A stretch of DNA of 64,000 nt from Halobacteriota archaeon. GTDB lineage: Archaea; Halobacteriota; Halobacteria; Halobacteriales; Halobacteriaceae. The notes beneath the pieces are model-generated. The model did not search any database. It worked only from the letters and a program-made list of their open reading frames with translations, and had not been told where the DNA came from. Position numbers and translations under genes: made by a program. Numbering within the stretch: position 1 is the first letter of the stretch; every line of letters starts with the position of its first letter. This document shows positions 1 to 14,706 of this stretch, piece after piece. Where the stretch lies: the NCBI GenBank assembly GCA_051744605.1, contig JBNJDE010000001.1, positions 1,580-65,579 on the forward strand, given 5' to 3'.

Positions 1-113
1 TTGACGGCGAGGACGCCGCGGATCGCCCCGTAGCCCGCTCTCTGATCGGCATCCCGGATGGCGGTCGCTACTTTCCCCCCGGCCTGTCCCAGGCCGATCA
101 ACGCGGCTTTCAT
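1..113 (-). CDS. cetZ: CetZ (tubulin/FtsZ family) protein, N-terminal fragment (continues off the left edge); CetZ2-like
   Basis: Manual translation from ATG at 113 gives MKAALIGLGQAGGKVATAIRDADQRAGYGAIRGVLAVN. This has the FtsZ/tubulin T1 loop (IG(L/V)GQAGGK) and the following 'AVN(T)' strand. Too short to appear in the ORF track. Confidence 0.9.
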   Translation of the reverse strand, partial: MKAALIGLGQAGGKVATAIRDADQRAGYGAIRGVLAV

Positions 114-193
114 ACCCGAGTGATTGCCGGCCCGGCCTATCAACGTTTGGCCGTCCGATCCTTTTTGTATCGAGACCGGCCCAACCGATCTCG

Positions 194-604
194 ATGCAGC
201 GAACCCGGTCCCTCGAGGAGCGACTCGATGCGGTGGAGCGAGCAGTCACAGACGGGGAGGTGCCCGTCGCGGACGTGGAAGACGCGGCCGAACGCACGGC
301 CCGCATCGAGCGCGTCGAGTCGCGACTCGATACGATGGAAGCACAGGTCGACGACCTCGAGGCCGCAGTCTCGGCCATCCGCGGGTACGTCGGCGAACTG
401 CGACACGTGAACCGGGAGGTCGAACGGACGGCCGCCGCTGCCGTCGCCGCCGTCGACCGACTGGACGCTGGTTCGGGGCCGTCACCACCGATCGCCCGTG
501 TCGACACCGACGAGCGGGTGGTTCCCGAGACGCGTCCAGCAGACGAAGCGGCCGGTGCCGAAGCGGACCGCGCGGTCCTCGATCGGCTGCGAGCGCTGCT
601 GTGA
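194..604 (+). CDS. Small acidic coiled-coil protein, first gene of the pilus-like operon
   Basis: 136-aa acidic ORF with heptad-like stretch (RIERVESRLDTMEAQVDDLEAAVSAIRGYV). TATA-like CTTTTTGTAT at 161-170. Stop overlaps the next GTG start (GTGA). Confidence 0.75.
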   Translation: MQRTRSLEERLDAVERAVTDGEVPVADVEDAAERTARIERVESRLDTMEAQVDDLEAAVSAIRGYVGELRHVNREVERTAAAAVAAVDRLDAGSGPSPPIARVDTDERVVPETRPADEAAGAEADRAVLDRLRALL

Positions 605-1158
605 TCGTCCGTCTCGTCCTCGCGGCGGTCGTCGCGGCGGCACTCCTCGGGGCAGCGATGCCCGTGGTCGACGACGCGAGACACGGGGTGGCGGCGACGG
701 ACGCGGACCGTTCGGCCACGGCGATAGCGGACGCCATCACCGACATCCACCGGTCGAGCGACCCCGTTCCACGAGGGGTCGCCGGCGCGAAGCGGATCGT
801 GACCGTCGAGACTGCCGACGGGGCGACGATCACGGTCGGGAGCCAGTCGAACCGAACCGCGTCAGGCGCGCGCGAGAAGCGGACCGAACCAGGTTCGAGC
901 GAGAATGGAACCGCGTCGGGGACGAGCGAGAATCGAACCGGTATGGACGGACCGACGGACGACGTCATCTCGTATCGGGTTCCGTCAGGGACCACGGGAA
1001 CCGTCGCGGTCGACGCGGACGTTCGCGTCGTGAAGAACGGGTCCGTTCGGCCCGACGGGGAAGGGCTCACGCTCCGCGACGGGCAGCGCGCCGTCCTTCG
1101 ACACGAACTGGTCGAGGGACACCCGACCGTGACGGTCGAGAGAGTTTATCCCGGATGA
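601..1158 (+). CDS. Membrane-anchored pilin-like/accessory protein with internal 9-aa repeat
   Basis: GTG at 601 overlaps the upstream stop. N-terminal hydrophobic helix (IVRLVLAAVVAAALLGAAMP) is followed by a beta-rich acidic domain. ATGA overlap with the ATPase gene. Confidence 0.7.
   Translation: MIVRLVLAAVVAAALLGAAMPVVDDARHGVAATDADRSATAIADAITDIHRSSDPVPRGVAGAKRIVTVETADGATITVGSQSNRTASGAREKRTEPGSSENGTASGTSENRTGMDGPTDDVISYRVPSGTTGTVAVDADVRVVKNGSVRPDGEGLTLRDGQRAVLRHELVEGHPTVTVERVYPG
853..942 (+). repeat. Degenerate 27-bp in-frame tandem repeat (3 units plus a partial)
   Basis: Units at 853-879, 880-906, 907-933 and a partial at 934-942 encode RTASGAREK / RTEPGSSEN / GTASGTSEN / RTG. GAGCGAGAAT recurs at 897 and 924; GAACCGCGTC recurs at 854 and 908. 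Confidence 0.75.
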
Positions 1159-2996
1159 CCGGACCAGCCCGCCCTATGTTCACCGAGTCCGAGGGTGGTG
1201 CCGAGTGCGCCTGCGCGCACGATTTCGTGGAGGATCGACTCGTGGTCGACGCCGAGGAGTGCTCCGGCGACGGGGACCTCGCCACGGACTCCGCGTGTCG
1301 CGCACACGTCGTCCGTTCCCTTCGCGAGCGGTCCGTCGCGGTCGTCCGCGTGGAGCGCGACGGCGTCGCGGTCTCGTACGAGGGGCGGTCCGCCCGACTG
1401 CTGTCGATCGCTGGAGCGTTCGCCGCCCGGGTCGCGGCGCGCGACGTCGAACTCGCGGAGCGGACCGAACGGGCGCCACTCGCCGCCGCACGAGACGCCT
1501 CCAGTCGTGTGGGCCCGGTCAGGGACCTGGCGGCGGAGACGGGCTTTGCCCGGTATGCGGAACTGGACGACCTCGACTCCGTTCTCGTCGGTGCGATCGG
1601 GCCGTCGATCGCCGCCGCCAGGGTCGATCCTCGACCACCTGAAGACGCACGGGTCCTCACGTCACGGGTACTCGATTCCGGCGCCACTGCGCGGGTCTAC
1701 GAGACCGACGGCGAGCGTCGCTACCACCTGGAACCGCTCGAGTACACCTTCGGAGCGACGGCCTTCGCGACGCTGGAACGGGCCCACGCCGAACTCGCCA
1801 CGCTGAAACCCGGGCGTCGGTCGGCACACGACGCAGTCGCCACCGTCGCGGACGCCGACCAGCCACTGGATGCACTCGGTCGCGTTCTCGCGAAACACAC
1901 CCGGGGATACGGCGTCCTCGACGACCTGTTCGCGGATCCCCGTGTGGGTGAGGTGTACGTCAACGCCCCGGCCGACGAGACGCCGCTCCACGTCCGTGTC
2001 GATGGACGGACCATGCAGACGAACGTGCGACTGACCGAACGGGGTGCGAAACTCGTGGCCTCCCGCATCCGCATGGAGAGCGGCCGGGCGTTCTCGCGGG
2101 CCGACCCGACCGTCGACGCCCTGCTCACGGACGTCGGCGGGCGGACGGCAGTCCGCGTCGCCGGCGTCCAGCCGCCAGCGAGCGAGGGGCTCGCGTTCGC
2201 CTTCAGGGCCGAGGCCACCGACGAGTGGCGCCTCGCCACGCTGGTTGATCTCGGCACGCTCTCCCCGCGAGCGGCCGGGTTCCTCGCAACGGCGATGAGC
2301 CGTGGCGCTGCCGTCCTCGTCGCGGGGCCACGGGGCGCCGGGAAGACGACGCTCGCGTCCGCGTTGCTCTGGGAACTGCCCCGGGAGGAGCGACTCCTCG
2401 CCATCGAGGACACCCCCGAACTCCCGATTCGGTCGATCCAGGCGGCCGGTCGGGACGCCCAGCGACTCCAGGCGGCACCGGACGACGCCGACCTCTCCCC
2501 CGCAGAAGCGCTACGAACCGCGCTTCGACTCGGCGATGGTGCCCTCGCCGTCGGCGAGGTCAGGGGGCCGGAGGCCGCCGTCCTCTACGAGGCGATGCGA
2601 GTCGGCGCGGCGTCCAGTGCCGTCCTCGGGACCATCCACGGCGAGGGTGCCGACGGCGTGCGAGAGCGAGTCGTCTCCGACCTGGGCGTCCCGGCGTCGT
2701 CGTTCCGGACGACCGACCTCGTCGTGACCATCGTCCCGGACGGGGCAGACCGGCGGGTGGCGGCCATCGAGGAGATAACGGACGCTGGCCCGAGCACGCT
2801 CTTCGAACTGACGGACGACGGCGTCGAACCGACCGGGCGGATCGCCAGAGGAAACAGCGAGTTCCTCGCAGCGATGGCCACGGCCTCGGAGTCCTACGCG
2901 GACGTCCGTGAGTGCATCGGGGAACGCGTGGGGGACTTCGAGGCCGACGCACCGCCCGGCGATTCGGTGGCGGCTCCAGGGACGGTGACCCCATGA
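1155..2996 (+). CDS. pilB: Type II/IV secretion (PilB/VirB11/CpaF-like) ATPase
   Basis: ATG at 1155 (ATGA overlap). Walker A GPRGAGKTT, Asp box LAIEDTPEL, Walker B LAVGEVRG, His box GTIHG. Confidence 0.9.
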   Translation: MTGPARPMFTESEGGAECACAHDFVEDRLVVDAEECSGDGDLATDSACRAHVVRSLRERSVAVVRVERDGVAVSYEGRSARLLSIAGAFAARVAARDVELAERTERAPLAAARDASSRVGPVRDLAAETGFARYAELDDLDSVLVGAIGPSIAAARVDPRPPEDARVLTSRVLDSGATARVYETDGERRYHLEPLEYTFGATAFATLERAHAELATLKPGRRSAHDAVATVADADQPLDALGRVLAKHTRGYGVLDDLFADPRVGEVYVNAPADETPLHVRVDGRTMQTNVRLTERGAKLVASRIRMESGRAFSRADPTVDALLTDVGGRTAVRVAGVQPPASEGLAFAFRAEATDEWRLATLVDLGTLSPRAAGFLATAMSRGAAVLVAGPRGAGKTTLASALLWELPREERLLAIEDTPELPIRSIQAAGRDAQRLQAAPDDADLSPAEALRTALRLGDGALAVGEVRGPEAAVLYEAMRVGAASSAVLGTIHGEGADGVRERVVSDLGVPASSFRTTDLVVTIVPDGADRRVAAIEEITDAGPSTLFELTDDGVEPTGRIARGNSEFLAAMATASESYADVRECIGERVGDFEADAPPGDSVAAPGTVTP

Positions 2997-4675
2997 CGGC
3001 TGAACAACGACGGCGCTGGCACGGGCTGTCGGTGGCCATCGAGGACTCGATACCGATCGCCGACACGCCCGAACTCTCCCGGCACCCGTCTCTCACGGTC
3101 GCCGGCGTGACGCTGGTTGCTGGTGCACTACTCGTCGTCGCGGGAAGCGTCCTGCTGGCGTCCGGGTCGGCGCGTGCTGCAGGAGTCGGACTCGGTGTCG
3201 CGCTGGGCGCGCTCGCGACGTACGGAACCTGGTTCGCACCGTCGGCGGTCGAGTCGTATCGCCGCCGGACGGCCGTCGGCTCGGTGCCCGAGGTGGTGGC
3301 CTACGCCGTGCTCCAGGCGCGACTGACGCCATCGCTCGAACGGGCCGCTCGCTTCGCCGGGAAGCAGTCGGGCGGCCTGCTCGGCCAGGACCTCGCCACC
3401 GTGGGAAGTGGCGACGCCACCGGGCAGGCCGGATGGGAATCCTTCGCCGCCGAGTGGTCCGCGTACGACGAGTCGCTCCCGCGGTCGGTCTCCCTGCTCA
3501 CCGCCGGGATCGACTCGGCGCAACCGGCCCGTGACGCATTGCTCGACCGTGCCCTCGATACTGCCCTTGCGGGGTCCCGAGAACGAGTGGCGAGCTTCGC
3601 GTCGTCGATCAGGGCACCGGCGACCGGGATCTACGCCTTCGGTGTGCTCTTACCGCTCGCGATGGTCGGGCTGCTACCCGTGGCGTCGAGTGCGGGGGCC
3701 GGCGTCTCCCCCGCCGCCATCGCCGTCCTGTACGACGGAGTCATCCCGATCGGTCTCCTGGTGGCGAGTGGCTGGCTCGCCGCTCGTCGACCCGCCGTCT
3801 CACGGCCGCCCTCCGGTATCGACAGTCTCGCTTCGCCTCGATCTGCGGCCCATACGATTCTCCTCGCCGCCGGGGCGGGCGTCACGGCAGGCGTCCTCGC
3901 GTCCCTCGTGCTACCGGCCTGGACGACCTGGATCGTGGCGCCCGGAATCGCCGCCGGCACGGCGGCGATCTACTGGTTCGAGCCGATCCGGAACCGCCGA
4001 CGGCGGGTGGAATCGATCGAGTCCGGGGTCCCCGATGCCGTCTCGCTCGTCGGACACCGACTGGCGGCTGGCGACCCACTGGAGGCCGCGATCGCCGTCG
4101 TCGGGGAGCGGATGACCGGCGAGACCGCCAGCGTGTTCCGCGAGGGGACGCGCGTGCATCGACGGCTCCGGGTGACCGTCCCCGAAGCGTTCACCGGGTC
4201 TAGCGGCGCCCTCTCTGCGTTCGAGAGTCGACGAACGGAGACGGCCGTCGCGTTGCTCGCCGCTGCAGCACGGAACGGCACGGCGGGTGGCGAGACCCTC
4301 GTCGACATCGCCGGCTACCTCCGCGACCTGGACGACGTCGAACGGGACGCGCGTCGAGAGCTGGCGCGGACGACGGACACCTTGCGACAGACCGCGCTGG
4401 TGTTCGGTCCCGCCATCGCCGGCGTCACCGTCGCGCTCGCGACCGGCATGGGCTCGCTCGGCGAGCACGGGCAAGCCGTCCCGGTTCCCGCGCTGGGTGT
4501 CGCCGTCGGTGGCTACGTCCTCGCGCTCGCCGTCGTCCTCCCGGCGCTCTCCGTGGTCCTCGAACGGGGGTACGATGGGGCGATCGTCGGCCACCGGGTC
4601 GGCATCGCGCTCCTCACCGCCAGCACCGTCTATCCAGTCACGTTCCTCGCGGCACGCAGCGTGGTACAGGTTTAA
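2993..4675 (+). CDS. pilC: Type IV pilus membrane platform protein (PilC/TadB-TadC-like)
   Basis: ATG at 2993 overlaps the ATPase stop. Polytopic, with two cytoplasmic T2SS-F-like lobes (…TPSLERAA…; …AAGDPLEAAI…) each followed by TM helices. Confidence 0.8.
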   Translation: MTAEQRRRWHGLSVAIEDSIPIADTPELSRHPSLTVAGVTLVAGALLVVAGSVLLASGSARAAGVGLGVALGALATYGTWFAPSAVESYRRRTAVGSVPEVVAYAVLQARLTPSLERAARFAGKQSGGLLGQDLATVGSGDATGQAGWESFAAEWSAYDESLPRSVSLLTAGIDSAQPARDALLDRALDTALAGSRERVASFASSIRAPATGIYAFGVLLPLAMVGLLPVASSAGAGVSPAAIAVLYDGVIPIGLLVASGWLAARRPAVSRPPSGIDSLASPRSAAHTILLAAGAGVTAGVLASLVLPAWTTWIVAPGIAAGTAAIYWFEPIRNRRRRVESIESGVPDAVSLVGHRLAAGDPLEAAIAVVGERMTGETASVFREGTRVHRRLRVTVPEAFTGSSGALSAFESRRTETAVALLAAAARNGTAGGETLVDIAGYLRDLDDVERDARRELARTTDTLRQTALVFGPAIAGVTVALATGMGSLGEHGQAVPVPALGVAVGGYVLALAVVLPALSVVLERGYDGAIVGHRVGIALLTASTVYPVTFLAARSVVQV

Positions 4676-4701
4676 CCCACAGGACCGGACCACCCCGTCC
4701 C

Positions 4702-5169
4702 ATGAACGCGACTCCCGCCGACGTACCGTTCGTCTGGATCGCCCTGCTCGTCGTCAGTGCGAGCGTCTTCGGTGTCGTCCTCTCGGTACCGACCGCACCG
4801 CCACCGGACGCCGACCGTGTGGCGGACGCCATCGACGAGGTCGCGGCCACCGACCACGCCGCGGAGACGGTGATACCGATCGACGCGACGGCGGTCAGGA
4901 TCGAACCGACGTCGATCGCCCTTCGAGATTCGGGTGGGTCGGCCCACGCGTCGTTGTACTTCGGGCCGGTCGTGCCGGCGCAGCCGGACAGTGACCTCGC
5001 GGCGGTGGCACGGGGGACACCGCCCGATGCGGTGTATGCCACGCCGGCGGCGTTCGAGGCCGCTCTCGACCGAGCACAGACGCGAGAGCATACCTGGCGA
5101 ACGGCTGGCGACGAACTCCGAGTTCGTCGGGTCCAGTTCGGGGAGGTCGACGGTGTCATCGTCGGGTAG
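4702..5169 (+). CDS. Pilin-like/accessory membrane-anchored protein
   Basis: 155 aa, single N-terminal hydrophobic helix (VPFVWIALLVVSASVFGVVL), acidic globular domain; inside the operon. Confidence 0.7.
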   Translation: MNATPADVPFVWIALLVVSASVFGVVLSVPTAPPPDADRVADAIDEVAATDHAAETVIPIDATAVRIEPTSIALRDSGGSAHASLYFGPVVPAQPDSDLAAVARGTPPDAVYATPAAFEAALDRAQTREHTWRTAGDELRVRRVQFGEVDGVIVG

Positions 5170-5527
5170 CAGGGCCCAGGTCGAACCGCTCCCCGCGCTC
5201 GTCGCGGTGAGCGCGTTCGTCGCCGCACTGGCGGTCTACGCGGTCGCGTTCCACGACGTGCCCACCGATACCGACCGGGACGTCGAGACGCAGGCGCTCG
5301 CGGCGGTGGTGGAGTCCGCGTCGACCGCCGGCGTTCTCGACCCGGCGGCGGTTCCAGACGATGGCCCGGCCGGCCACGAGATGGCGGTCGTCGTCCGGGC
5401 CGACGGCAGCGAGTGGAACACGGGTCCCGAACCCCCGGACGATGCCAGATCGGCAACGAGACAGGTCCTCGTCGGCACCGATCGCGGTGAGCAGGTGGGG
5501 CGCATCAGGGTCTGGGTGTGGCGATGA
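5153..5527 (+). CDS. Pilin-like protein with class III-like signal
   Basis: GTG at 5153 gives MSSSGSRA/QVEPLPALVAVSAFVAALAVYA: basic-small residue pair followed by a hydrophobic helix. ATGA overlap with the next gene. Confidence 0.7.
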   Translation: MSSSGSRAQVEPLPALVAVSAFVAALAVYAVAFHDVPTDTDRDVETQALAAVVESASTAGVLDPAAVPDDGPAGHEMAVVVRADGSEWNTGPEPPDDARSATRQVLVGTDRGEQVGRIRVWVWR

Positions 5528-6072
5528 ACCGGGGTATCAGTACGGTCCTCGACGTGGGATTCGCCATCGTCCTGGTGGGCGCGAGCGTCGCGGTCCTCGC
5601 CGGCGTGCCCTCGACGGGCGTCGACCAGCAACCCGCCGTCCACGCGGGCGGTGGCGTCGCGGTCGCCGGCAGCACCATGACGGTGCAGTACGAGCGAGAG
5701 GACGATCGGTCGGCAGTCGTCACACGGACCGTCGCGGGCCACGTACGCGATGCCGCCATCGCACGGGACCAGGGCGTCGGGGAGACGTACGTCGCTGCCG
5801 TCGAGGCGGACGTCGCCGATCGCATCGAGGAGACGGGGACGCGCACGCAAATCGTCGGCGCGTGCGTCGAGGACGGTCGTGCGTCGACCATGGGATCGGA
5901 ACCGAGTCACGGGAGCGGAAACGCGGGACAGGACGCCGGGACGGTCGTCGCTGGTCCCGCGCCACCGACCGGGGCACCGGTCGACGCGACGGTGTATCGC
6001 TGGAACGAGTCCGCAGTTCCGTCCTCGCCGGCGTGCCAGCCGGTGGTCGTCGTCCGGAGCTGGTCGCCGTGA
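5524..6072 (+). CDS. Pilin-like protein with class III signal peptide
   Basis: MNRG/ISTVLDVGFAIVLVGASVAVLAG matches the archaeal prepilin-peptidase [KR][GA]/x pattern. GTGA overlap with the next gene. Confidence 0.75.
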   Translation: MNRGISTVLDVGFAIVLVGASVAVLAGVPSTGVDQQPAVHAGGGVAVAGSTMTVQYEREDDRSAVVTRTVAGHVRDAAIARDQGVGETYVAAVEADVADRIEETGTRTQIVGACVEDGRASTMGSEPSHGSGNAGQDAGTVVAGPAPPTGAPVDATVYRWNESAVPSSPACQPVVVVRSWSP

Positions 6073-8945
6073 CCTTCGTCGCGGACGAGCGAGGTCGCGT
6101 GCCGTTCGCGCTCGTCGCGGCGCTGTTGCTCGTGAGCAGTCTGACGTACACGAGCGGCCTCGTTCACGAGGAACCCGCGGAGCCGGTCTCGCCCCGGCTG
6201 GTCGAGGAGGCGACCGCGGAGGCTCGCATCCAGCTCGGGAGCGTGGCACGCACGGCCGATCGGCACGCGGCGGCCGAACCCGTGACGACCGTGGCGACGA
6301 CCCGACTCGGTCGGGTACTCGCCGACGACCCGTTCGAGCGCTCCCTCGAACTCCGTATCGCCGTCCTGGCTCGCCAGGACGTCGTCGCGAATCGCACGGC
6401 AGACGGGTCCCGCGTCGAGGTCACGGTCCCGCCGATTACGGACGAAGCCGACGCCCGCCGGGCGCTCCGGGAGGTATCGACGACTCACCTCACCGACGAT
6501 AGATACCGCGTTCGGCTGGAGAACGTCTCCGTGAGGGTCCACCGAGATGGACGTGTGGTAGACGAAGACACCATCGCCCTCGAGACGACGGTCGCGCTCC
6601 CATCGATGGCCGTCCACCAGCGTGCAGGGACCTTCGAGCGCCGACTGTCGGCGGGCGTCACGGAACCGGGCCTCGAGCGAGGGCTGACCACCCGGCTGTT
6701 CGCACTGGCCTGGGTTCGTGGCTACGCGCAGTACGGCGGCGCACCGATATCGAACGTCGTGGCGAACCGCCACGTCGGCGTGCTCACGAACGACGTGCTC
6801 GTCGACCAGCAGGTGGCCACCTTCGGTCGGGCCGACCCCGATAGCCGTCGCGGCGTGGCCCGGGCGGGTGCGGACGTCGCCGTCGCCGACGGGGTCGGTG
6901 GGATGGAGAGCCTCATCTCCGCCGAGATGGGGCCCGACGACGAGGCGGCCAAACCCGAGGGTGCCGCCTCGCTCGGGGCCATCGATACGCCGTCGGTCAT
7001 GGACGATTCCCACGAGTACGACGTGGGCCGCGGTGCGGACGAGACGTTCGTGGACTTCGTCGATGGAAGCGGGCTGGACGACGCGCTCTCGGCGGCGTAT
7101 CGGGCTCGGATCCGCCCGGAGGCCACGGCTCGACAGACCGACTATTCGGTGCGCCACGACGGCAGTCGGCCGGCGAACGGGACGCCACAGTTCTCGTACA
7201 CGACGACCGACAGAACGGTCCGTGGTGACGACCGGACGACTGCTCGTGGGTCGACGGTGCTCCGATACGAGCGGACGGTGACGGTCACCGAGACGGAGCA
7301 CACCTACTGGACGGTCAACCGGACCGTCGTCGCGACGACGAGTACCGAACGAGAGCGCACCTACGACGTCTCCATCGACGTCCGCTGTCGCTACGACGCT
7401 CCCGACGCCCCCGGTGGTCGCGTGACCCGCGCGTGCCCATTCGGGGATTCGGCACGTGCCGACCTCGAAGACGAGGCGACCAGCGCGGTAGCGGGGCGGT
7501 TCGGCGGGGTGGATTCGATCGCCGAAGACGCCGTCCGTGGCGACCCGTCGTACCGGTGGCGAACGGTTTCCGTCGATCCGCCGAGACAGGCTCGTGAGCG
7601 AGCATACGCTTCGACCGCCGATCTGCGAGACGACCTTCGGGACGTCGACGTCGCGGTCGAACCAGCCTCGATGGCGTCCACGGCGAATCCGGCGTCTCGG
7701 TTGTCCGAGAACGTCCATCGGCGCCACGACCGGCTGGTGGCAGCCCCTCGATCCTATCGCTCGGCGGCCGCGGTGGCGGAGTACGTCGCCAGAGAACGGT
7801 ACCTCGACGCGATGGAGGACGACCTCGACGACCACTCGTCGACGTTCGCCGGGATGCAGGACGCGCTGGGGGACGTGATGGCCGACCACGCGGTCCCGAG
7901 TGAGCCTCCTGCGGGGGAACCCGACACGCTCCCACCCATCGCCTCGTCCGTCGAGGCCGAACCACGGTACCTGTCGCTCGAGGCGGAACGAGGGTCGCCC
8001 AACCTCGCCGCCAGGAACGTCAACGTGTTCACGGTCCCGTACGGGGACGCCGCGGACTCGGTCTCGGGGGTCGTCGGCGGGGACGACGAGTCGACGTCGC
8101 TCTCGACGGCCACCAGCACCCTCGTGGCCACGAACCGCGCGCTCGCCGAGGAGCCCGATCCGCAGTTGCGTGCCGAACGGGACGGACTTCGCGTAGCGAT
8201 CCGCCAGTCGCTCGACGCCGTCCGCGAGGAACAGCGACGGGCGCTTCGGGAGAGCGCTGGACTATCGCGGACCGAGGCGACCAGGGCCCTCGATGCAGGA
8301 TACGACCGACACGGTTCGACCGCTTCGCGCGCCACCGCGGTCGTCGAGGGGACGATCTCGGGCGACGTCGCGGCGTCGCTCCCCGACTCGCTGTCGGCGA
8401 GCGAACGTGACCGTGCCAAGGTGGCACTGCGGGTGGCGACGACCGAGGCGCGAGACGCAGCGTCGGTCAGCGTCGACGAATCCACCGTCTCCGCCGCGAC
8501 CGACCGATTGCGCCCCCACCTCCGCGAGGGCGTCGATCAGGCGGTTCGCGTGGGGACCCATCGTGCGGTGTCGCTGGGGAAACGGCGGGCGATGCGCTCG
8601 GCCGCGGCCGAGATCCCCGCGGGACTCCCGCTGACGCCCGTTCCGGGCCAGTGGTACGCGACCGCGAACGTCTGGGTGGTCTCCGTCGAGGGCGGTTACG
8701 ACCGATTCACCGTCGAGACGCCGCGAGCGACGCCGATTCACGGCGACGACGGGACGATATCGTACGTCCGCGAATCCGCGGCCGTGACGCTCGACGTCGA
8801 CGACGACGGCATCGAGGAGACCATCGGCCGGAACGAACCCATCGACCTGTCCGCCGACACCGGGGTCGTCGTGGTGGTCCCCCCAGGGCCCGCCGGCGTG
8901 GGCGATACGAACGGGGTCGCCGACGAACGGTCCCCCGGCTGGTGA
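6069..8945 (+). CDS. Large (958 aa) pilin-signal extracellular protein, putative adhesin/tip protein
   Basis: GTG at 6069 gives MTFVADERG/RVPFALVAALLLVSSL. Long acidic beta-rich body with no further TM helix. DVDDDG loop near the C-terminus. Confidence 0.8.
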   Translation: MTFVADERGRVPFALVAALLLVSSLTYTSGLVHEEPAEPVSPRLVEEATAEARIQLGSVARTADRHAAAEPVTTVATTRLGRVLADDPFERSLELRIAVLARQDVVANRTADGSRVEVTVPPITDEADARRALREVSTTHLTDDRYRVRLENVSVRVHRDGRVVDEDTIALETTVALPSMAVHQRAGTFERRLSAGVTEPGLERGLTTRLFALAWVRGYAQYGGAPISNVVANRHVGVLTNDVLVDQQVATFGRADPDSRRGVARAGADVAVADGVGGMESLISAEMGPDDEAAKPEGAASLGAIDTPSVMDDSHEYDVGRGADETFVDFVDGSGLDDALSAAYRARIRPEATARQTDYSVRHDGSRPANGTPQFSYTTTDRTVRGDDRTTARGSTVLRYERTVTVTETEHTYWTVNRTVVATTSTERERTYDVSIDVRCRYDAPDAPGGRVTRACPFGDSARADLEDEATSAVAGRFGGVDSIAEDAVRGDPSYRWRTVSVDPPRQARERAYASTADLRDDLRDVDVAVEPASMASTANPASRLSENVHRRHDRLVAAPRSYRSAAAVAEYVARERYLDAMEDDLDDHSSTFAGMQDALGDVMADHAVPSEPPAGEPDTLPPIASSVEAEPRYLSLEAERGSPNLAARNVNVFTVPYGDAADSVSGVVGGDDESTSLSTATSTLVATNRALAEEPDPQLRAERDGLRVAIRQSLDAVREEQRRALRESAGLSRTEATRALDAGYDRHGSTASRATAVVEGTISGDVAASLPDSLSASERDRAKVALRVATTEARDAASVSVDESTVSAATDRLRPHLREGVDQAVRVGTHRAVSLGKRRAMRSAAAEIPAGLPLTPVPGQWYATANVWVVSVEGGYDRFTVETPRATPIHGDDGTISYVRESAAVTLDVDDDGIEETIGRNEPIDLSADTGVVVVVPPGPAGVGDTNGVADERSPGW

Positions 8946-8991
8946 GACCGGGAACAACATCCACAATACCCCTGCCGGCGTATGGGCGGGC

Positions 8992-9426
8992 ATGCTCCTG
9001 GACCCGATCGACGCCCCTGAGGAAACGACGGCCGAGGACCTCCATCTCGCGTACCTCGAGGAACTCGCCGCGGTCGTCTCGGACGTGGGCGTCGACGAAG
9101 CGGCGGACCGGACGGAGATACCTGCAGACGTACTCACGGCGCTCGTCTCCGGTGAGCACCCGGATCTCGTGCTGGACGACGCGGCGGCGATACTGGCGTT
9201 GACCGACGAGTGGCCGGACGCGGACGTGGTGATGCTCGAGATCCGCGACTCGATCATGCTGGGGATGAGTTCGGCGGTCCTCGACGTCGACGCGCTCGAG
9301 CGAGAACTCGACGACGGGCTGGACGCGAAGACGATCCAGCAGATGATCGAGGGACGGCGGCCGATGCCACTCGCGGAGTACGCCGCTATCGCGCTGACCA
9401 TCGAACGAGAGAACGACTACGCCTAG
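8992..9426 (+). CDS. Conserved haloarchaeal protein with HTH-like segments (DUF5791-like, from memory)
   Basis: 144-aa acidic ORF; GVDEAADRTEIPADVLTAL and GLDAKTIQQMIEGRRPM resemble HTH motifs. Confidence 0.65.
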   Translation: MLLDPIDAPEETTAEDLHLAYLEELAAVVSDVGVDEAADRTEIPADVLTALVSGEHPDLVLDDAAAILALTDEWPDADVVMLEIRDSIMLGMSSAVLDVDALERELDDGLDAKTIQQMIEGRRPMPLAEYAAIALTIERENDYA

Positions 9427-9697: not shown

Positions 9698-10903
9698 GTG
9701 AGCATGCGAGTGGCGGCCGACGGGGAGACAGAGCGGATCCACGTCTTCGGCTCGCTGTGCCTGCTGGTCTTCCTCGTGAACTTCGGCCGCATCGTGTTCG
9801 CGCCGCTGCTCGACCCCTTCATGGGCACGTTCGGGGTCGGCGAGGCGACCGTCGGACTGGTGGCCACGCTGGCCTGGCTGGGCAGTGCGGTCCCTCGTCT
9901 GCCGACGGGCTACCTCCTCCTGTATCTCGACCGCCACCGGGTGGTGTTGCTGACCGGCCTGCTCCTCGCGGCGTCCTCGGCGTTCACCGCGACCGCGGAG
10001 TCCATCCTCCACGTGGGCGTCGGGGCGTTCGTCATGGGGAGTTCGAGTGGTGCGTACTTCGTCGCCGCCAATCCGCTCGTCAGCGAGCTGTTCCCGGACC
10101 GGGTCGGGCGAGTGATCGGGATCCACGGCACCGCATCGCAACTTGCTGCGGTGGTCGCACCGCTGTCCATCGGTCTGGTCATCGCGGTGTCCACCTGGCG
10201 GACGGTCTTCTGGGCGTTGAGCATCGTCGCGCTCGTCGGGACCGCCGGGCTGTACGTCGCGGCGAGGCGTGCCACCCTCCCGACGGTACAGTCGGGCGAG
10301 CGCCGGTTGCTCCAGTCGGTCAGGAACCAGTGGCCCATCGTCCTCACGGGGGTCGCCATCATCGGCGCGACCGGATTCGTCTGGAACGGCTTCTTCAACT
10401 TCTACGTGAGCTATCTGACTGCGACGAAAGGCATCGGGCTGGGGACCGCCCAGACGCTGTTGACCGTGGTGTTCGCCGCGGGCGTCCCCGCGTTCTGGTA
10501 CACCGGGCGGCTGGCCGACCGGATGAACCACGTCACGCTGATGCTCGCCATCCTGATCGCCTTTCTGAGCACGCTGCTCGTACTGACCGCCGTCCAGTCG
10601 CTTCCCGCGGTCGTCGCGGTGTCCATCGTGCTGGGGTACGTCGTCCACAGTCTCTTCCCCGCGCTCGACACCTACCTCCTCGACAACCTCCCGGACACGG
10701 ACCGAGCGAGCGCGTACGCCGCGTACAGTGCGTCGATGATGCTCATCCAGGCGGGGGCGAGCGTGGTGGTCGGGTGGCTGGTCGAGAACGGCTTCGCGTA
10801 CGACACCGTGTATCGGTCCTTTGTCGTCGGACTGTTCGTCATCTTCGTCGGCCTCGTGTGGCTGCGCCGGGCGGACCGGCTCCCGGAAGCGGCCAGGGGT
10901 TGA
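9698..10903 (+). CDS. MFS transporter
   Basis: About 12 hydrophobic segments; MFS motif-like GRLADRMNH. Start may instead be ATG 9704. Confidence 0.9.
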   Translation: MSMRVAADGETERIHVFGSLCLLVFLVNFGRIVFAPLLDPFMGTFGVGEATVGLVATLAWLGSAVPRLPTGYLLLYLDRHRVVLLTGLLLAASSAFTATAESILHVGVGAFVMGSSSGAYFVAANPLVSELFPDRVGRVIGIHGTASQLAAVVAPLSIGLVIAVSTWRTVFWALSIVALVGTAGLYVAARRATLPTVQSGERRLLQSVRNQWPIVLTGVAIIGATGFVWNGFFNFYVSYLTATKGIGLGTAQTLLTVVFAAGVPAFWYTGRLADRMNHVTLMLAILIAFLSTLLVLTAVQSLPAVVAVSIVLGYVVHSLFPALDTYLLDNLPDTDRASAYAAYSASMMLIQAGASVVVGWLVENGFAYDTVYRSFVVGLFVIFVGLVWLRRADRLPEAARG

Positions 10904-10975
10904 CCTGTCGCGCACTCGATCTCGAGGCGGCTCAGCGCCGGAAGGTAAATCCACCTGGCGGTCGGCTATCACGAC

Positions 10976-12067
10976 ATGGATTACACGCAGGAACGGGTCG
11001 CCACCCTGCACGATTTCGGCGACGCGGACCCGGCGTTCGCGCCCCAGCGGGCGGCACTCGTCGTCCCGATGACCGACCGGGACGCCGGCAGTCTCACCGC
11101 CGACCGCCTCTTCTCCTCGCTCGGCGAACTCGGACTGGCGTCGGTCATCGCGCCGATACGGGCTCCCGAAGAGCGCATCCCCTCGATCGTGGACTGGGTG
11201 ACGGGCTTCGAGGTGGACGTCCAGCCGGTGTGGTGTAACGGCCCCGCCCTCGAATCGCTTTTGGCCGATCACGGCCTCGATGGAGAGGCCGGGAAGGGTC
11301 GCGACGTCTGGGTGGGCGTGGGACTGGCTGGCGAGGTGGACCACGTCGTCTTCCACGATGCGGACGTCACGAGTTACGAGCCCCGGGACATCCGGAAGCT
11401 CCTCTCGCCGCTCGAGGGGGACGCGTCGTTCACGAAGGCGTACTACGCCAGGGTAGAGGACGGCAACCTGTACGGTCGGCTGTTCAGGCTCCTCTACGAA
11501 CCGCTGATCACGAGCCTCGAAGGTGCCCATCCGGCGCCGATCCTCGGGTACCTCGGCGCGTTCAGATACGCCCTGGCCGGGGAGTTCGCGATGACGACCG
11601 ACGTCGCCCACTCGATGCGGGTGCCGCGCCGATGGGGACTGGAGGTCGGAACGCTCGGCGAGGCGTACCGGACGGTGGGGTTCGAGGGGACTGCCCAGGT
11701 CGACCTCGGCCGCTACGAACACGGTCACCGAGCGGTGTCGGGTCCCGAGGGGCTGTCGACGATGGCGGTCGGCGTGGCGGAGACGGTGTTCAGAGTCCTC
11801 GAGGACCAGGGGGTCGAACCGGCGTACGGGGAACTGGTCGCTGCCTTCGAACGCGAGGGCGTGCAGCTCGTCCGCCAGTACAGCGCGGACGCCCGATTCA
11901 ACGACTTCCAGTACGACGAGGAGGCCGAGCGAGAACAGGTAGGGGCGTACGCGCAGGCGATAGCGCCGCCCGGACCGGACGACCGGTTGCCGGCCTGGTC
12001 GAAGACCGACCTGGACATGGCGACGCTCCTCGAGGTCGTCCGCTCCGACCTGAATCGGGCACAGTGA
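10976..12067 (+). CDS. Glucosyl-3-phosphoglycerate synthase-like glycosyltransferase (GT-A)
   Basis: GKGRDVW, FHDAD (DxD), KAYYAR, GRLFRL, YALAGEFAM, WGLEVGTL and YEHGH motifs typical of GpgS/MpgS-like enzymes. Confidence 0.75.
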   Translation: MDYTQERVATLHDFGDADPAFAPQRAALVVPMTDRDAGSLTADRLFSSLGELGLASVIAPIRAPEERIPSIVDWVTGFEVDVQPVWCNGPALESLLADHGLDGEAGKGRDVWVGVGLAGEVDHVVFHDADVTSYEPRDIRKLLSPLEGDASFTKAYYARVEDGNLYGRLFRLLYEPLITSLEGAHPAPILGYLGAFRYALAGEFAMTTDVAHSMRVPRRWGLEVGTLGEAYRTVGFEGTAQVDLGRYEHGHRAVSGPEGLSTMAVGVAETVFRVLEDQGVEPAYGELVAAFEREGVQLVRQYSADARFNDFQYDEEAEREQVGAYAQAIAPPGPDDRLPAWSKTDLDMATLLEVVRSDLNRAQ

Positions 12068-12093
12068 AGTCTCTCGACGAAGAGTGCACTCGT

Positions 12094-12561
12094 ATGCACA
12101 TCGACGCCGACGAGTTGGCCGGTATCGTCGACCTGTTCGGGCTGCTCCCCCGGTCGGCGCTCCTGGACGCCGTCCGCGAACTGGCCTTTCGCCGCGACGT
12201 CTCCTTCGACGCCGCAGAGACCGAGGCGGCTATCGACGATGCCGTGGCCTCGTTCGTCCTGGTCCAGTTCGAATACGAGGGCGAATCGGTCCTCGTTCCC
12301 GGACCGACGGCGTTCCCGATGCTCCCCGAGGGGGCCGAGGACCTTCCGCACATCCTGGACGCCGAACGTCGCGACGTCGACCGGTCGGTCCTCGCCGACC
12401 CGATCCGCGACCGACTCACGCAGGCCGCCTCGCAGGTGCAAGACCCCGAACGGGCCCACGAACTCCTCGACGTCACCTACGATGCGGAGGCCTGGACCGA
12501 CGTCGACTTGACGGCCGTCCGGGACCGGCTGGAACGGGTCACCGGTGCGGGCCCCGGGTGA
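12094..12561 (+). CDS. Conserved haloarchaeal hypothetical protein
   Basis: ATG at 12094 (MHIDADELAGIVDLFG…), acidic composition, sits between flanking genes in operon spacing. Confidence 0.7.
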   Translation: MHIDADELAGIVDLFGLLPRSALLDAVRELAFRRDVSFDAAETEAAIDDAVASFVLVQFEYEGESVLVPGPTAFPMLPEGAEDLPHILDAERRDVDRSVLADPIRDRLTQAASQVQDPERAHELLDVTYDAEAWTDVDLTAVRDRLERVTGAGPG

Positions 12562-12591
12562 GTTAAGGCCTTCCACCGGCTGGAATGGAAC

Positions 12592-13200
12592 ATGGACCTG
12601 GGTCGGGTGGCCGAACACACTCCCCGGATCATCGAGGACGAGGACCGCGACGCGGCGGTACTGGTCCCCGTCATCCGGCGGTCCGACGGTCACCACCTGC
12701 TGTTCATCAAGCGTGGCGATCACCTCGGGGAACACCCCGGGCAGATGGGGTTCCCGGGTGGTGGCCACGAACCGAGCGACGACGACCTCTGCGAGACCGC
12801 CGTCCGGGAGGCGGGCGAGGAGGTGGGACTCCGTCGGGACGAGATCGAGTTCGTCGGCCAACTCGACGACACCAGGACGACGTCTCGATACGCGGTGACT
12901 CCGTACGTGGCCCGCATCCCGGACCGCACCTATCGACCCGACGAGCGGGAGGTCTCCGAGGTCGCCATCCTGCCCATCGATGCGCTGACCGACCCGGCGA
13001 ACTACGAGGTCGAACGGCGCGAACATCCCCGCTATGGCGAGGTGTTCGTCCACTTCTTCAGGGTCGACGGCTACACCGTCTGGGGGGCCACGGGGCGGAT
13101 GCTCGTCCAGTTCCTCGAACTCGCGACGGACTGGCGGCCACCCGGCGGCGTCGGACACGTCGTCGATCCGGAGGCAGACCTCCGGACCGGCGGTCGTTGA
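12592..13200 (+). CDS. Nudix hydrolase, CoA pyrophosphatase-like
   Basis: Nudix box GGGHEPSDDDLCETAVREAGEEVGL, upstream HPGQMGFPGG and downstream VWGATG motifs. Confidence 0.9.
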   Translation: MDLGRVAEHTPRIIEDEDRDAAVLVPVIRRSDGHHLLFIKRGDHLGEHPGQMGFPGGGHEPSDDDLCETAVREAGEEVGLRRDEIEFVGQLDDTRTTSRYAVTPYVARIPDRTYRPDEREVSEVAILPIDALTDPANYEVERREHPRYGEVFVHFFRVDGYTVWGATGRMLVQFLELATDWRPPGGVGHVVDPEADLRTGGR

Positions 13201-13333
13201 CGTGAGCGGTACACTTATCCACGTGGCCAGGGTACGACTGTATCACATGGTCGCAACGACGATGGATCGAGTTCCGGCACGGCACTGATTCTCTCACTAC
13301 GGCGGTAGTACACGGTTTCGGCGGTGATGGTCG

Positions 13334-14155
13334 ATGTTGAGTAGCCGAGAGGCTATCGGCCGGACCTGCGCGGAAACCGGTACGGGAACGCTCGTCGAAG
13401 ATACCTGCCTCGACGGGGTCGCCCTCAAACCGACGGAGGTCGACATCGACGGCGCCCACGAGGTCCCTCTGGGGACGTTCACCGTGGACTACGAGGGCCA
13501 CGAGCACGTCCCCGACGTGGCGACGCTCGAGCGACTGGCGGCGGACCGGGAGGTCCGGGTAACGGTCCCCGTCCGCGCCGACGGGTTCGATCCGCTCGGC
13601 GATTCGAGCGCCCTCGAGGCGCTCCCCGAGACGGCCGATATCGTCTTCGTCGCCGGGAACCCCGCCTACCTCGAGGAGCACGAGCAGCAACGAGCGGTCG
13701 CCCCACGACTCGGCGCGGCCGTCGAAGCCGTCTCGAACGCCTGGGTCGGCACGGAGGGCATCGAACGTCTCGCGCTCGCCACCGGGGCGACGCAGTTCGA
13801 ACTCCTCTCGCGGACCACCGAGCGGACCGTCCACGCGCTTCGGTCGGCTGGCTTCGGTGGCGACGTCGCGGTGTACGCACCGACCGTGTTGACCGACGAC
13901 GAGGACGAGATCCTCGACGCCGTCGGCGCGTACGTCTCGCGACGGAAGCCCGTCGCCAGGGCGCTGCCCGAAGACGCACCCACCGACAGTACCGCGACGG
14001 GACGGGCCCGCTCGGTGCTCCTGGACGCAGCGACGGACTACGCGCTCGTCGGATCGCGAGGGTCGGTCCACGAGCAAGTAGAATCGCTACGCGAGGCCGG
14101 CGTCGACACCGTCGTCGGGTACCCCGCACGGGGCCTCGAAGAGTTCGTGGGCTGA
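13334..14155 (+). CDS. Conserved haloarchaeal protein, possibly luciferase-like TIM barrel
   Basis: 273-aa acidic ORF with alternating beta/alpha pattern (VALKP, VRVTVPVRADGFDPLGD, VAVYAPTV, VVGYPARG). Confidence 0.65.
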   Translation: MLSSREAIGRTCAETGTGTLVEDTCLDGVALKPTEVDIDGAHEVPLGTFTVDYEGHEHVPDVATLERLAADREVRVTVPVRADGFDPLGDSSALEALPETADIVFVAGNPAYLEEHEQQRAVAPRLGAAVEAVSNAWVGTEGIERLALATGATQFELLSRTTERTVHALRSAGFGGDVAVYAPTVLTDDEDEILDAVGAYVSRRKPVARALPEDAPTDSTATGRARSVLLDAATDYALVGSRGSVHEQVESLREAGVDTVVGYPARGLEEFVG

Positions 14156-14156
14156 C

Positions 14157-14573
14157 TCAGGCGTCGCTGTCGTCGACGTCGTCCTCGTCGGCCTTCGGCA
14201 ACCGAACCTGGAGCGTGCCGTCCTCCTTCAGCGTCGCCCGCGTCCGCTCCAGGTCGACGACGGCGTCGTCCGGGAGTTCCGCTCGTCCCTCCAGGGCGAG
14301 GCCACGACCGGGGAATCGCATCTCGTAGCCCTCGTGAAAGGTCCTGAACCGATCGACGCGGACCTCGATTCCCCCGGTCTCGTACCACACCTGGATGTCG
14401 GTGATCGTGGCACCCGGGGCGTCGAAGAGGACGAGGTAAGCCTCCGGGTTCTCGAGGAGGTCCGAGCGCAGCGGCGTTGCTTCGTGGAAGCGCGACGCGA
14501 CCTGGCCGACGGTGTCGACGACGGCGTCCCCGATGCGTTTGACGGGTCGGGTGAGGGGCACGTTACTGGTCAT
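14157..14573 (-). CDS. Hsp20/alpha-crystallin family small heat-shock protein
   Basis: DLLENPEAYLVLFDAPG … ATLKEDGTLQVRLPK alpha-crystallin signature. Confidence 0.85.
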   Translation of the reverse strand: MTSNVPLTRPVKRIGDAVVDTVGQVASRFHEATPLRSDLLENPEAYLVLFDAPGATITDIQVWYETGGIEVRVDRFRTFHEGYEMRFPGRGLALEGRAELPDDAVVDLERTRATLKEDGTLQVRLPKADEDDVDDSDA

Positions 14574-14706
14574 GGGGTACCTCCTGACGGCTCCGTCGGA
14601 AACGACGTGGCCGTCGGTGGTATGGGAGATCGTTGGCTCGCCACGGGCTTAAGCCCGGGGGCCGGGGAGCGCCCGGCTTATATCTATCCGTGCCCAAACC
14701 CGCCCG

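Follow-up and report, generated by a model that had tools for sequence, protein, structure and literature searches.

Does a tubulin-like cytoskeletal gene that stands head to head with a type IV filament operon work together with that operon, or do the two only keep an old place beside each other? The question is raised by the left end of a 64,000-nucleotide stretch of a Halanaeroarchaeum genome (C1:1580-65579 of an assembly of 2.19 Mb in 177 contigs; hereafter the window), where the CetZ gene cetZ2 is read leftward and an eight-gene operon rightward. We hold, with a probability of roughly 0.85, that the locus is a copy of the class-wide haloarchaeal 4F type IV filament locus whose products would act through a tip or priming complex, that gene and operon have separate promoters, and that their adjacency is old synteny with at most conditional coupling. 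A sequence-only reading of the window had seen here a co-regulated module and an unrecognised system. The locus and its linkage to cetZ2 are already catalogued (PMC4858521, PMC9856176, PMC13705601), and as a discovery the window adds only one more orthologous copy; what is new here are the stubs left by recurrent loss, a reduced form of the locus in one genus, and a comparison of cetZ2 and operon expression in Haloferax volcanii. The stakes lie with CetZ2, for which no function was defined before 2026 and whose 'additional factors' are still to be found: if a functional link between CetZ2 and the 4F machine were true, a tubulin-family cytoskeleton would for the first time be seen coupled to a type IV filament machine.

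A 4F locus beside cetZ2

We assign the locus to subclade, or subsystem, 4F because its ATPase is orthologous to HVO_0748 of H. volcanii (51% identity, syntenic) and because of its accessory genes. Makarova, Koonin and Albers described subclade 4F in Halobacteria in 2016, with an ATPase that has a variable Cys-rich N-terminal domain, an intracellular coiled coil (arCOG07564) unique to halobacterial 4F loci, frequently a large S-layer-like protein, an ftsZ-like gene in the neighbourhood, and a major PilA-type pilin that is mostly encoded elsewhere, the stand-alone PilA family arCOG02981 being linked to 4F (PMC4858521). The H. volcanii equivalent is the pilB2/pilC2 regulon HVO_0746-0753 beside cetZ2 (HVO_0745); for most Haloferacales and Halobacteriales, cetZ2 is the specific neighbour of this regulon (12 of 22 species, then 41 species), the cetZ2 neighbourhood includes a phosphodiesterase (arCOG01377) and a hypothetical protein (arCOG04674), and Brown and Duggin proposed in 2023 that CetZs might scaffold type IV systems (PMC9856176). 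A survey in PLoS Genet 2026 likewise reports that subsystem 4F co-localises with CetZ2 (PMC13705601). The likeness of the window's layout to the H. volcanii cetZ2-pilB2/pilC2 region, proposed in the sequence-only reading, is borne out by the published gene names and by the fetched H. volcanii locus (L011), whose gene lengths agree with the annotation of HVO_0743-0755. Gene models for the operon were set from the start codons at the junctions and give the following features:

1..113, minus strand: first 37 codons of cetZ2; the frame continues beyond the window edge (C1:619-1692)
194..604, plus strand: g1, DUF7310, acidic cytoplasmic coiled coil with no transmembrane segment (PF23991, 97 bits)
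601..1158, plus strand: g2, DUF7311, single N-terminal transmembrane anchor at residues 5-23 (PF23993, 83 bits); 4-nt GTGA overlap
1155..2996, plus strand: g3, PilB2-type secretion/assembly ATPase (T2SSE, 72 bits); 4-nt ATGA overlap
2993..4675, plus strand: g4, polytopic putative platform of the PilC2/TadC class (T2SSF, 20.4 bits against a cut-off of 25.2); 4-nt ATGA overlap
4702..5169, plus strand: g5, DUF7283, N-terminal transmembrane anchor (PF23954, 169 bits); 26-nt gap after g4
5153..5527, plus strand: g6, DUF7285, prepilin-like (PF23956, 83 bits); 17-nt overlap with g5
5518..6072, plus strand: g7, shortened DUF7284, prepilin-like, with MNR-G-ISTV (PF23955, 26.6 bits)
6069..8945, plus strand: g8, DUF7286, 958 amino acids (PF23957, 843 bits); 4-nt GTGA overlap
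8992..9426, plus strand: g9, DUF5791, right flank gene (PF19104, 144 bits)

Reading the junctions upholds the proposed eight-gene plus-strand operon from 194 with mostly GTGA or ATGA overlaps; g6 and g7 share 10 nt when g7 starts at the GTG at 5518, and 4 nt (ATGA) when it starts at the ATG at 5524. Each operon gene has a family match, and therefore none is a chance open reading frame despite 70% G+C; G+C runs at 0.68-0.74 across window positions 1-9000 with no break in composition. From description and position, g1 is probably arCOG07564, the 4F signature coiled coil, and g8 probably the 'adhesin-like' arCOG02945 of the 2026 survey; g9, by its position, may be the arCOG04674 of Brown and Duggin 2023, and it probably lies outside the machine.

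The minus-strand gene enters the window with the translation MKAALIGLGQAGGKVATAIRDADQRAGYGAIRGVLAV (113-1). The ATG at 113, already noted as a CetZ start, opens a complete CetZ2, a 357-amino-acid protein encoded by the full open reading frame at C1:619-1692, which matches PF21011 CetZ_C at 217 bits and PF00091 Tubulin at 94 bits, carries the GGGTGSG signature and contains no transmembrane segment by hydrophobic-segment analysis. Against PDB chains it scores 466 bits with 4B45, in one stretch, and 321 bits with 4B46, in two stretches; the alignment to the latter is gapped at the CetZ1 insertion, and the long M-loop insertion is absent from the window protein. Both entries are titled only 'cell division protein FtsZ'; we take 4B45 to be H. 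volcanii CetZ2 and 4B46 to be H. volcanii CetZ1. On this comparison of scores, the higher with 4B45, the gene is by its sequence a CetZ2 orthologue. A PF01663 phosphodiesterase lies upstream of cetZ2, and DUF5791 downstream.

Ancestral linkage and repeated deletion

Two queries, the DUF7286 profile as marker of the operon and the window's CetZ2, were run against the genomes of 151 Halobacteria species; for CetZ2 a clean gap separated putative orthologues (at least 387 bits) from paralogues (at most 332 bits). Full-length DUF7286 was found in 100 of the 151, which places 4F among the most widespread haloarchaeal type IV filament loci; CetZ2 was found in 130, and both in 93. The two genes are adjacent in 70 of these 93 genomes (70 of the 81 in which they share a contig), and all 70 pairs are divergent and head to head, 1.5-7.1 kb apart with a median of 6.7 kb. 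The conserved linkage that the sequence-only reading called for is thus present. Among the remaining 23 genomes, 11 carry both genes far apart on one contig and 12 on different contigs, some of them at contig ends. Presence of the one does not depend on presence of the other, as 37 genomes have CetZ2 without the operon marker and 7 have the marker without CetZ2.

Gene order is equally stable: cetZ2, g1-g8 and DUF5791 follow one another in 19 of the 20 loci that were fetched across 7 GTDB families, the exception being locus L021 of genome G054, with DUF7310 as the first gene in 18 of 20 and DUF5791 after g8 in 18 of 20. The phosphodiesterase flank is kept where it was examined (the window's own genome, G004 and G120), and arCOG04674 stands beside cetZ2 in 34 of 41 species (PMC9856176). 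DUF5791, the phosphodiesterase and arCOG04674 being as well conserved as the operon, synteny alone does not single out the pilus genes.

Genomes without the operon carry traces of it. Between cetZ2 and DUF5791, genome G078 (L024, G078:C1:403000-412000) retains g1 residues 7-92 followed directly by g8 residues 745-958, G015 (L025) retains g8 residues 753-958, and G065 (L026) retains g8 residues 576-768, with one TGA inside the stretch found by profile search. In G023 (L033) the operon is fully gone, and cetZ2 directly adjoins DUF5791, which has thus stayed in place after the operon was deleted. G078, G015 and G023 belong to one genus whose other members carry an intact operon. Since the stubs lie in place between cetZ2 and DUF5791, these are deletions and not empty insertion sites. 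Loss also runs the other way: the PF01663 phosphodiesterase directly abuts g1 in G120 (L028), from a genus without CetZ2, and in G004 (L030/L031), where cetZ2 is 1 Mb away, so cetZ2 can be excised cleanly from the locus. Pairwise protein distances for CetZ2 are correlated with the distances for g3, g4 and g8 (r = 0.63-0.69, Mantel P = 5 × 10−4). Taken together, the stubs, the excision of cetZ2 and the covariation of distances indicate an ancestral arrangement eroded by repeated deletion; they point to a cetZ2-operon linkage that is ancestral to Halobacteria, with the operon lost repeatedly, and this speaks against the mobile-element suggestion made in PMC9856176.

A reduced form occurs in a Natrialbaceae-like genus (g11, family f5), where a locus of G054 (L032, G054:C1:1476000-1495000, 9788-15817) lacks g1-g5 and keeps the following, in coordinates of that locus:

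14675-15817, plus strand: cetZ2, directly divergent from DUF7285-DUF7284-DUF7286
14022-14627, minus strand: DUF7285, intact
13045-14025, minus strand: DUF7284, intact
9788-13057, minus strand: DUF7286, intact

The 4F-type ATPase is absent from the G054 and G017 genomes, in which the best match is 30% identical; within the same genus, the 4F ATPase lies 1.4 Mb away in G055 and is split in G077. Two further genes were seen at this locus: DUF7286 and DUF5791 are separated by a gene for a PQQ beta-propeller, and about 2.3 kb downstream of cetZ2 there is a second CetZ paralogue.

Putative back-to-back promoters and uncoupled expression in H. volcanii

Between the cetZ2 ATG and the start of g1 lie 80 bp (114-193). 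This spacer measures 72-81 bp in 12 of 18 orthologous loci and at most 131 bp. Ungapped profiles of the 18 loci, anchored at each start codon, bear out the TATA-like elements that had been noted for both directions and add a third conserved element:

137..150, minus strand: BRE/TATA-like element (BRE, transcription factor B recognition element) of cetZ2, reading CCAAACGTTGATAG, 24-37 nt upstream of the ATG
162..170, plus strand: TATA-like box of the operon, TTTTTGTAT, 24-32 nt upstream of the g1 ATG
178..186, plus strand: conserved GGnCCA(A/C)C element, downstream of the TATA-like box and ahead of g1 (cGgG.CCA.Cc as consensus of 18 loci, −17 to −7)

The consensus on the cetZ2 side is GGcg.AA..TTgAa at −39 to −26, that on the g1 side TTtAa.a at −31 to −25, and A+T content reaches 90% at the conserved boxes against a background of 30%. 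Haloarchaeal TATA boxes lie about 27 nt before the transcription start. The geometry found here suggests that the cetZ2 mRNA is leaderless or nearly so, and the operon mRNA would be so as well. From their composition and conservation, the boxes at 137-150 and 162-170 are putative promoters, and they would form two separate promoters rather than one shared element, with pre-initiation complexes back to back about 25 bp apart. The TATA box does not account for the GGnCCA(A/C)C element, which may be a regulator site or a proximal promoter element.

To what extent two such promoters act together can be read from H. volcanii, for which the published supplement of the MinD2 study gives transcripts per million (TPM) for strain H26 in planktonic culture (PMC11588486). 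Values in early, mid and stationary phase are as follows:

cetZ2 (HVO_0745): 89.6 / 102.8 / 129.9
HVO_0746: 3.9 / 3.1 / 2.4
HVO_0747: 1.7 / 1.8 / 0.7
pilB2 (HVO_0748): 0.98 / 0.99 / 0.35
pilC2 (HVO_0749): 1.2 / 1.3 / 0.30
HVO_0750: 4.1 / 4.5 / 1.5
HVO_0751: 0.68 / 0.99 / 0.16
HVO_0752: 1.9 / 2.0 / 0.52
HVO_0753: 14.3 / 20.4 / 12.7

In this supplement HVO_0746-0752 stand 20- to 800-fold below cetZ2 and fall in stationary phase while cetZ2 rises. Deletion of minD2 lowers cetZ2 5-fold in early phase (log2 fold change −2.32, adjusted P = 1 × 10−18) and brings no significant change in HVO_0746-0750, 0752 and 0753, the seven operon genes compared (PMC11588486). Expression of gene and operon, which had been expected to correlate, therefore differs in level, in stationary trend and in response to minD2, an outcome of the kind that the sequence-only reading had named as refuting its module, and on these supplement data a co-regulated cetZ2-operon module is not supported under the planktonic conditions tested. 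Under mating conditions cetZ2 is mostly down. Since each of the two H. volcanii promoters follows its own course in planktonic culture, long-conserved synteny is the best reading of the adjacency, and an obligate CetZ2-pilus module is not indicated.

Within the operon, HVO_0753, the DUF7286 gene and g8 orthologue, exceeds the ATPase and platform genes 5- to 10-fold in the same supplement. This level suggests an internal promoter or start, or a stable 3' fragment; an internal start would fit the reduced DUF7285-DUF7284-DUF7286 form of the locus.

A functional module, as proposed by the sequence-only reading and earlier by Brown and Duggin, is the alternative that fares best, though we judge it less likely than not. 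CetZ2 filaments at the cell edge would position or scaffold the 4F machine, or be anchored by it, and the two promoters would be co-induced under a condition that these cultures did not sample (contact with a surface or another cell, for instance, or late stationary phase), with DUF7310 and DUF7311 as a possible link. Such a module would fit the divergent order that 70 of 93 genomes preserve, together with two conserved promoters some 25 bp from each other, the reduced locus in which DUF7285-DUF7284-DUF7286 still diverge from cetZ2 with g1-g5 gone, an independent CetZ-pilus association in Thermococcales (PMC4858521, PMC9856176), and an 8.5-fold rise of Halobacterium salinarum pilB2 in adherent cells (PMC4292770), a gene possibly of the same clade. 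However, the H. volcanii values in the supplement are uncoupled and run in opposite directions in stationary phase, the two partners occur singly (37 and 7 genomes) or far apart on one contig (11), and other neighbours are kept just as well (DUF5791 in 18 of 20 loci, the phosphodiesterase, and arCOG04674 in 34 of 41 species). The functional study of CetZ2, which describes stationary-phase up-regulation, maintenance of plate shape and dynamic patches at the cell edge, accounts for its phenotype without reference to pili (PMC13556191).

The machine and its known relatives

That the operon encodes an archaeal type IV filament machine is supported by its parts. The ATPase g3 is closest to TadA, TrbB and FlaI-type ATPases (NCBIfam TadA-like TIGR03819, 118 bits), with Archaeoglobus fulgidus GspE2 (2OAP), CpaF and FlaI as its best PDB sequence matches. 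Its Walker A motif AGPRGAGKTT is intact, as are the EDTPEL, GEVRG and LGTIHG boxes; across 21 orthologues the Walker A, Asp and His boxes are invariant, and so is CxC-x(15-24)-C-x(10-11)-C in the N-terminal domain of about 230 amino acids. The platform g4 has seven or eight hydrophobic segments and two large loops, its orthologues match T2SSF over the same region at 16.7-27.6 bits, and a platform role agrees with its position and with the H. volcanii annotation; an alignment profile of the platform protein found no match in the PDB.

Five proteins (g2, g5, g6, g7 and g8) carry a single N-terminal hydrophobic segment, and class III signals had been ascribed to such proteins. In N-terminal alignments across up to 20 loci this holds for three of the five: R-[G/A] is conserved right before the hydrophobic helix in DUF7285, DUF7284 and DUF7286. 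The g6 site, R-[A/G]-Q-x-E-P followed by the helix, is present in 17 of 17 aligned orthologues, that of g7, R-[G/A]-ISTV, in 4 of the 5 orthologues detectable by tblastn, and g8 starts with (D/E)R-[G/A]-RVPFAL and then the helix. DUF7311 (g2, MIVRxVLA) and DUF7283 (g5, MFDxPxDxWYxWLG) lack an R-[G/A] site in the same alignments and are plain anchors. The window's g7, at 184 amino acids, covers positions 1-152 of the 278 in its profile; DUF7284 in other families runs to about 290-326 amino acids, with the full-length form scoring 266 bits in L032, and in the Halanaeroarchaeum lineage its C-terminal half has gone. Among named proteins, those closest to g8 and g6 come from Halanaeroarchaeum. An AlphaFold2 (AF2) model of g6 from a 22-sequence alignment (predicted local distance difference test, pLDDT, 82) has a helix at 13-32, another at 44-56 and a four-stranded sheet, which makes a pilin-like topology plausible.

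The large protein g8 was modelled from 32 sequences as a mixture of helical and sheet domains (AF2, mean pLDDT 76.8, predicted template modelling score 0.48). Its C-terminal D..DG / GVGD region is conserved, and within DxDxDG the residues D909 and D913 never vary, while D911 and G914 hardly do. A DxDxDG calcium loop was considered here and rejected, the motif being only partly conserved, with no structural support and no tie to a PilY1-like fold. In one protein, P0120 (1154 amino acids, on 8 contigs), DUF7286 continues across a short linker as DUF5791, through natural fusion or through loss of a stop codon; if real, the fusion would mean that g9 is functionally linked to g8.

Components missing from the operon occur elsewhere in the genome: one A24 prepilin peptidase (PF01478, 44 bits, contig C144) and three PilA-type Pilin_N genes. 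The genome also has five or six further T2SSE ATPases. 'Orphan', as the operon had been called, is with such a peptidase and such pilins at hand a loose word. The account that we favour starts from the order phosphodiesterase, cetZ2 leftward, 4F operon rightward, DUF5791, an arrangement that would be ancestral to Halobacteria and worn down by deletions, with cetZ2 and the operon presumably read from the two conserved BRE/TATA-type promoters, separate and back to back. The coiled coil DUF7310, the membrane anchor DUF7311, a 4-Cys ATPase of hexameric type, the platform and four N-terminally anchored proteins would make up the machine. The single A24 peptidase would cleave DUF7285, DUF7284 and perhaps DUF7286 at R-[G/A]; ATPase and platform would draw the cleaved proteins out of the membrane to form a short complex, of the priming or tip kind, which a PilA-type major pilin from elsewhere would extend. 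We would expect a surface filament that is rare and condition-specific and that serves, most probably, for attachment.

Several observations weigh against this account. The role of a tip or priming complex is proposed by analogy only. The models bear out neither an Ig-repeat adhesin, a PilY1-like propeller or an S-layer-like protein for g8 nor a canonical pilin fold for g6: Foldseek against the PDB returned nothing significant for g8 (best E = 0.04, SecB-like fragments), with no PilY1-type protein among the 50 matches listed, and for the g6 model it returned no pilin (best E = 0.13, to a domain of ribosomal protein S3). At +1 of its putative site g8 has Arg, a residue that the FlaFind rule is not known to permit there, and only one g4 orthologue (27.6 bits) reaches the T2SSF cut-off. 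The expression comparison comes from a single species and a single laboratory, at three time points of planktonic growth. The Thermococcales pair of CetZ and pilus genes, as a second and independent association, argues for some real functional link. For the 4F locus itself, PMC9856176, PMC13705601, PMC4858521, PMC4292770 and PMC6491452 report no filament and no mutant phenotype.

Rather than a pilus, the operon might encode a membrane-embedded device for secretion or envelope remodelling, with a short pseudopilus as piston and DUF7286 as cargo or cap, a reading that we consider unlikely. By Pfam the operon has no PilA-type major pilin, its small proteins are few and short, the DUF7286 fold has no solved relatives, 4F ATPases cluster apart from other archaeal systems (PMC13705601), and the excess of the DUF7286 transcript in the H. 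volcanii supplement would suit a cargo or cap. Yet there is no evidence for a secreted substrate, PilA-type pilins are available in trans, with arCOG02981 tied to 4F (PMC4858521), and cross-use of pilins between PilB/PilC pairs is documented in H. volcanii (PMC6491452).

Doubtful, and a step less probable again, is a reading in which the part tied to cetZ2 is DUF7285-DUF7284-DUF7286 alone, as a membrane-anchored envelope complex that engages the CetZ2 edge patches and is maybe one of the missing stationary-phase factors that maintain plate shape; the complex could be processed by any available PilB/PilC pair or by none. It is suggested by the retention of these three genes without g1-g5 in genus g11, two of whose four genomes lack a 4F ATPase altogether, together with the higher DUF7286 transcript in H. 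volcanii. A mobile or recently acquired pilus island inserted beside cetZ2, as suggested in PMC9856176, is very improbable, for although identical flanks are found both with and without the operon, there and here, and Makarova and colleagues ascribe its ATPase/TadC pair to horizontal transfer from Crenarchaeota (PMC4858521), we reject it on the deletion stubs in G078, G015 and G065, with the same operon position and orientation in 7 GTDB families, operon protein distances that track those of CetZ2, and no integrase, repeat or composition break in window 1-9000 standing against it as well.

On whether CetZ2 and the 4F machine are functionally linked, the comparative facts narrow the experiments: the linkage is ancestral, the promoters are separate and show no planktonic co-regulation, and DUF7285-DUF7284-DUF7286 stay with cetZ2 on erosion.

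Set beside known systems, the window locus is nearest to that of H. volcanii, with which it shares the same families in the same order, a coiled-coil first gene, the Cys-rich N-domain of the ATPase, a large last gene, cetZ2 divergent upstream and DUF5791 downstream, at orthologue identities of 31-65% (L011). It differs in the shortened g7, in an intergenic spacer of 80 bp against about 120 bp, and in lacking the carboxylate-amine ligase-like gene HVO_0744 that stands between phosphodiesterase and cetZ2 in H. volcanii. The pil-2 locus of Hbt. salinarum (OE1347R-OE1332R), considered as a possible counterpart of the window locus, is restricted to haloarchaea, has an arCOG01818 ATPase and comprises seven co-transcribed genes that start with pilB2 and pilC2, with three FlaFind-positive prepilins and a very low transcript level (PMC4292770). 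Its pilC2 has an in-frame stop in all three sequenced strains. On its clade the papers disagree between 4C and 4F, the text of Makarova and colleagues appearing to favour 4C (PMC4858521, PMC4292770, PMC6491452). PilB2-C2 of Natrinema J7 adjoins pilA genes, probably belongs to a different clade and was not used as evidence (PMC12426801).

With Tad/Flp pili the operon shares an ATPase closest to the CpaF/TadA type and the archaeal GspE2 type, a polytopic putative platform gene right after it, and a presumed dependence on an A24-family peptidase. The label 'Tad-like' suits the ATPase, which resembles TadA/CpaF, and fails for the remaining proteins: Pfam and NCBIfam give no match to Flp pilin, TadV peptidase, RcpA secretin or TadZ/TadD/TadE/TadF/TadG in the eight operon proteins, a single fused platform protein takes the place of TadB plus TadC, and, unlike those of Tad/Flp, the accessory genes all belong to haloarchaea-specific DUF families. 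The likeness to the minor-pilin/PilY1 priming complex of type IVa pili and to the type II pseudopilus tip is one of analogy, with no similarity in sequence or fold; what is shared is the combination of small prepilin-like proteins with one very large protein, the major subunit being encoded elsewhere. In Thermococcales the CetZ clade, the ATPase clade and the pilin families are all different, and there too a CetZ-family gene stands beside a type IV pilus locus, of clade 1 (PMC4858521, PMC9856176).

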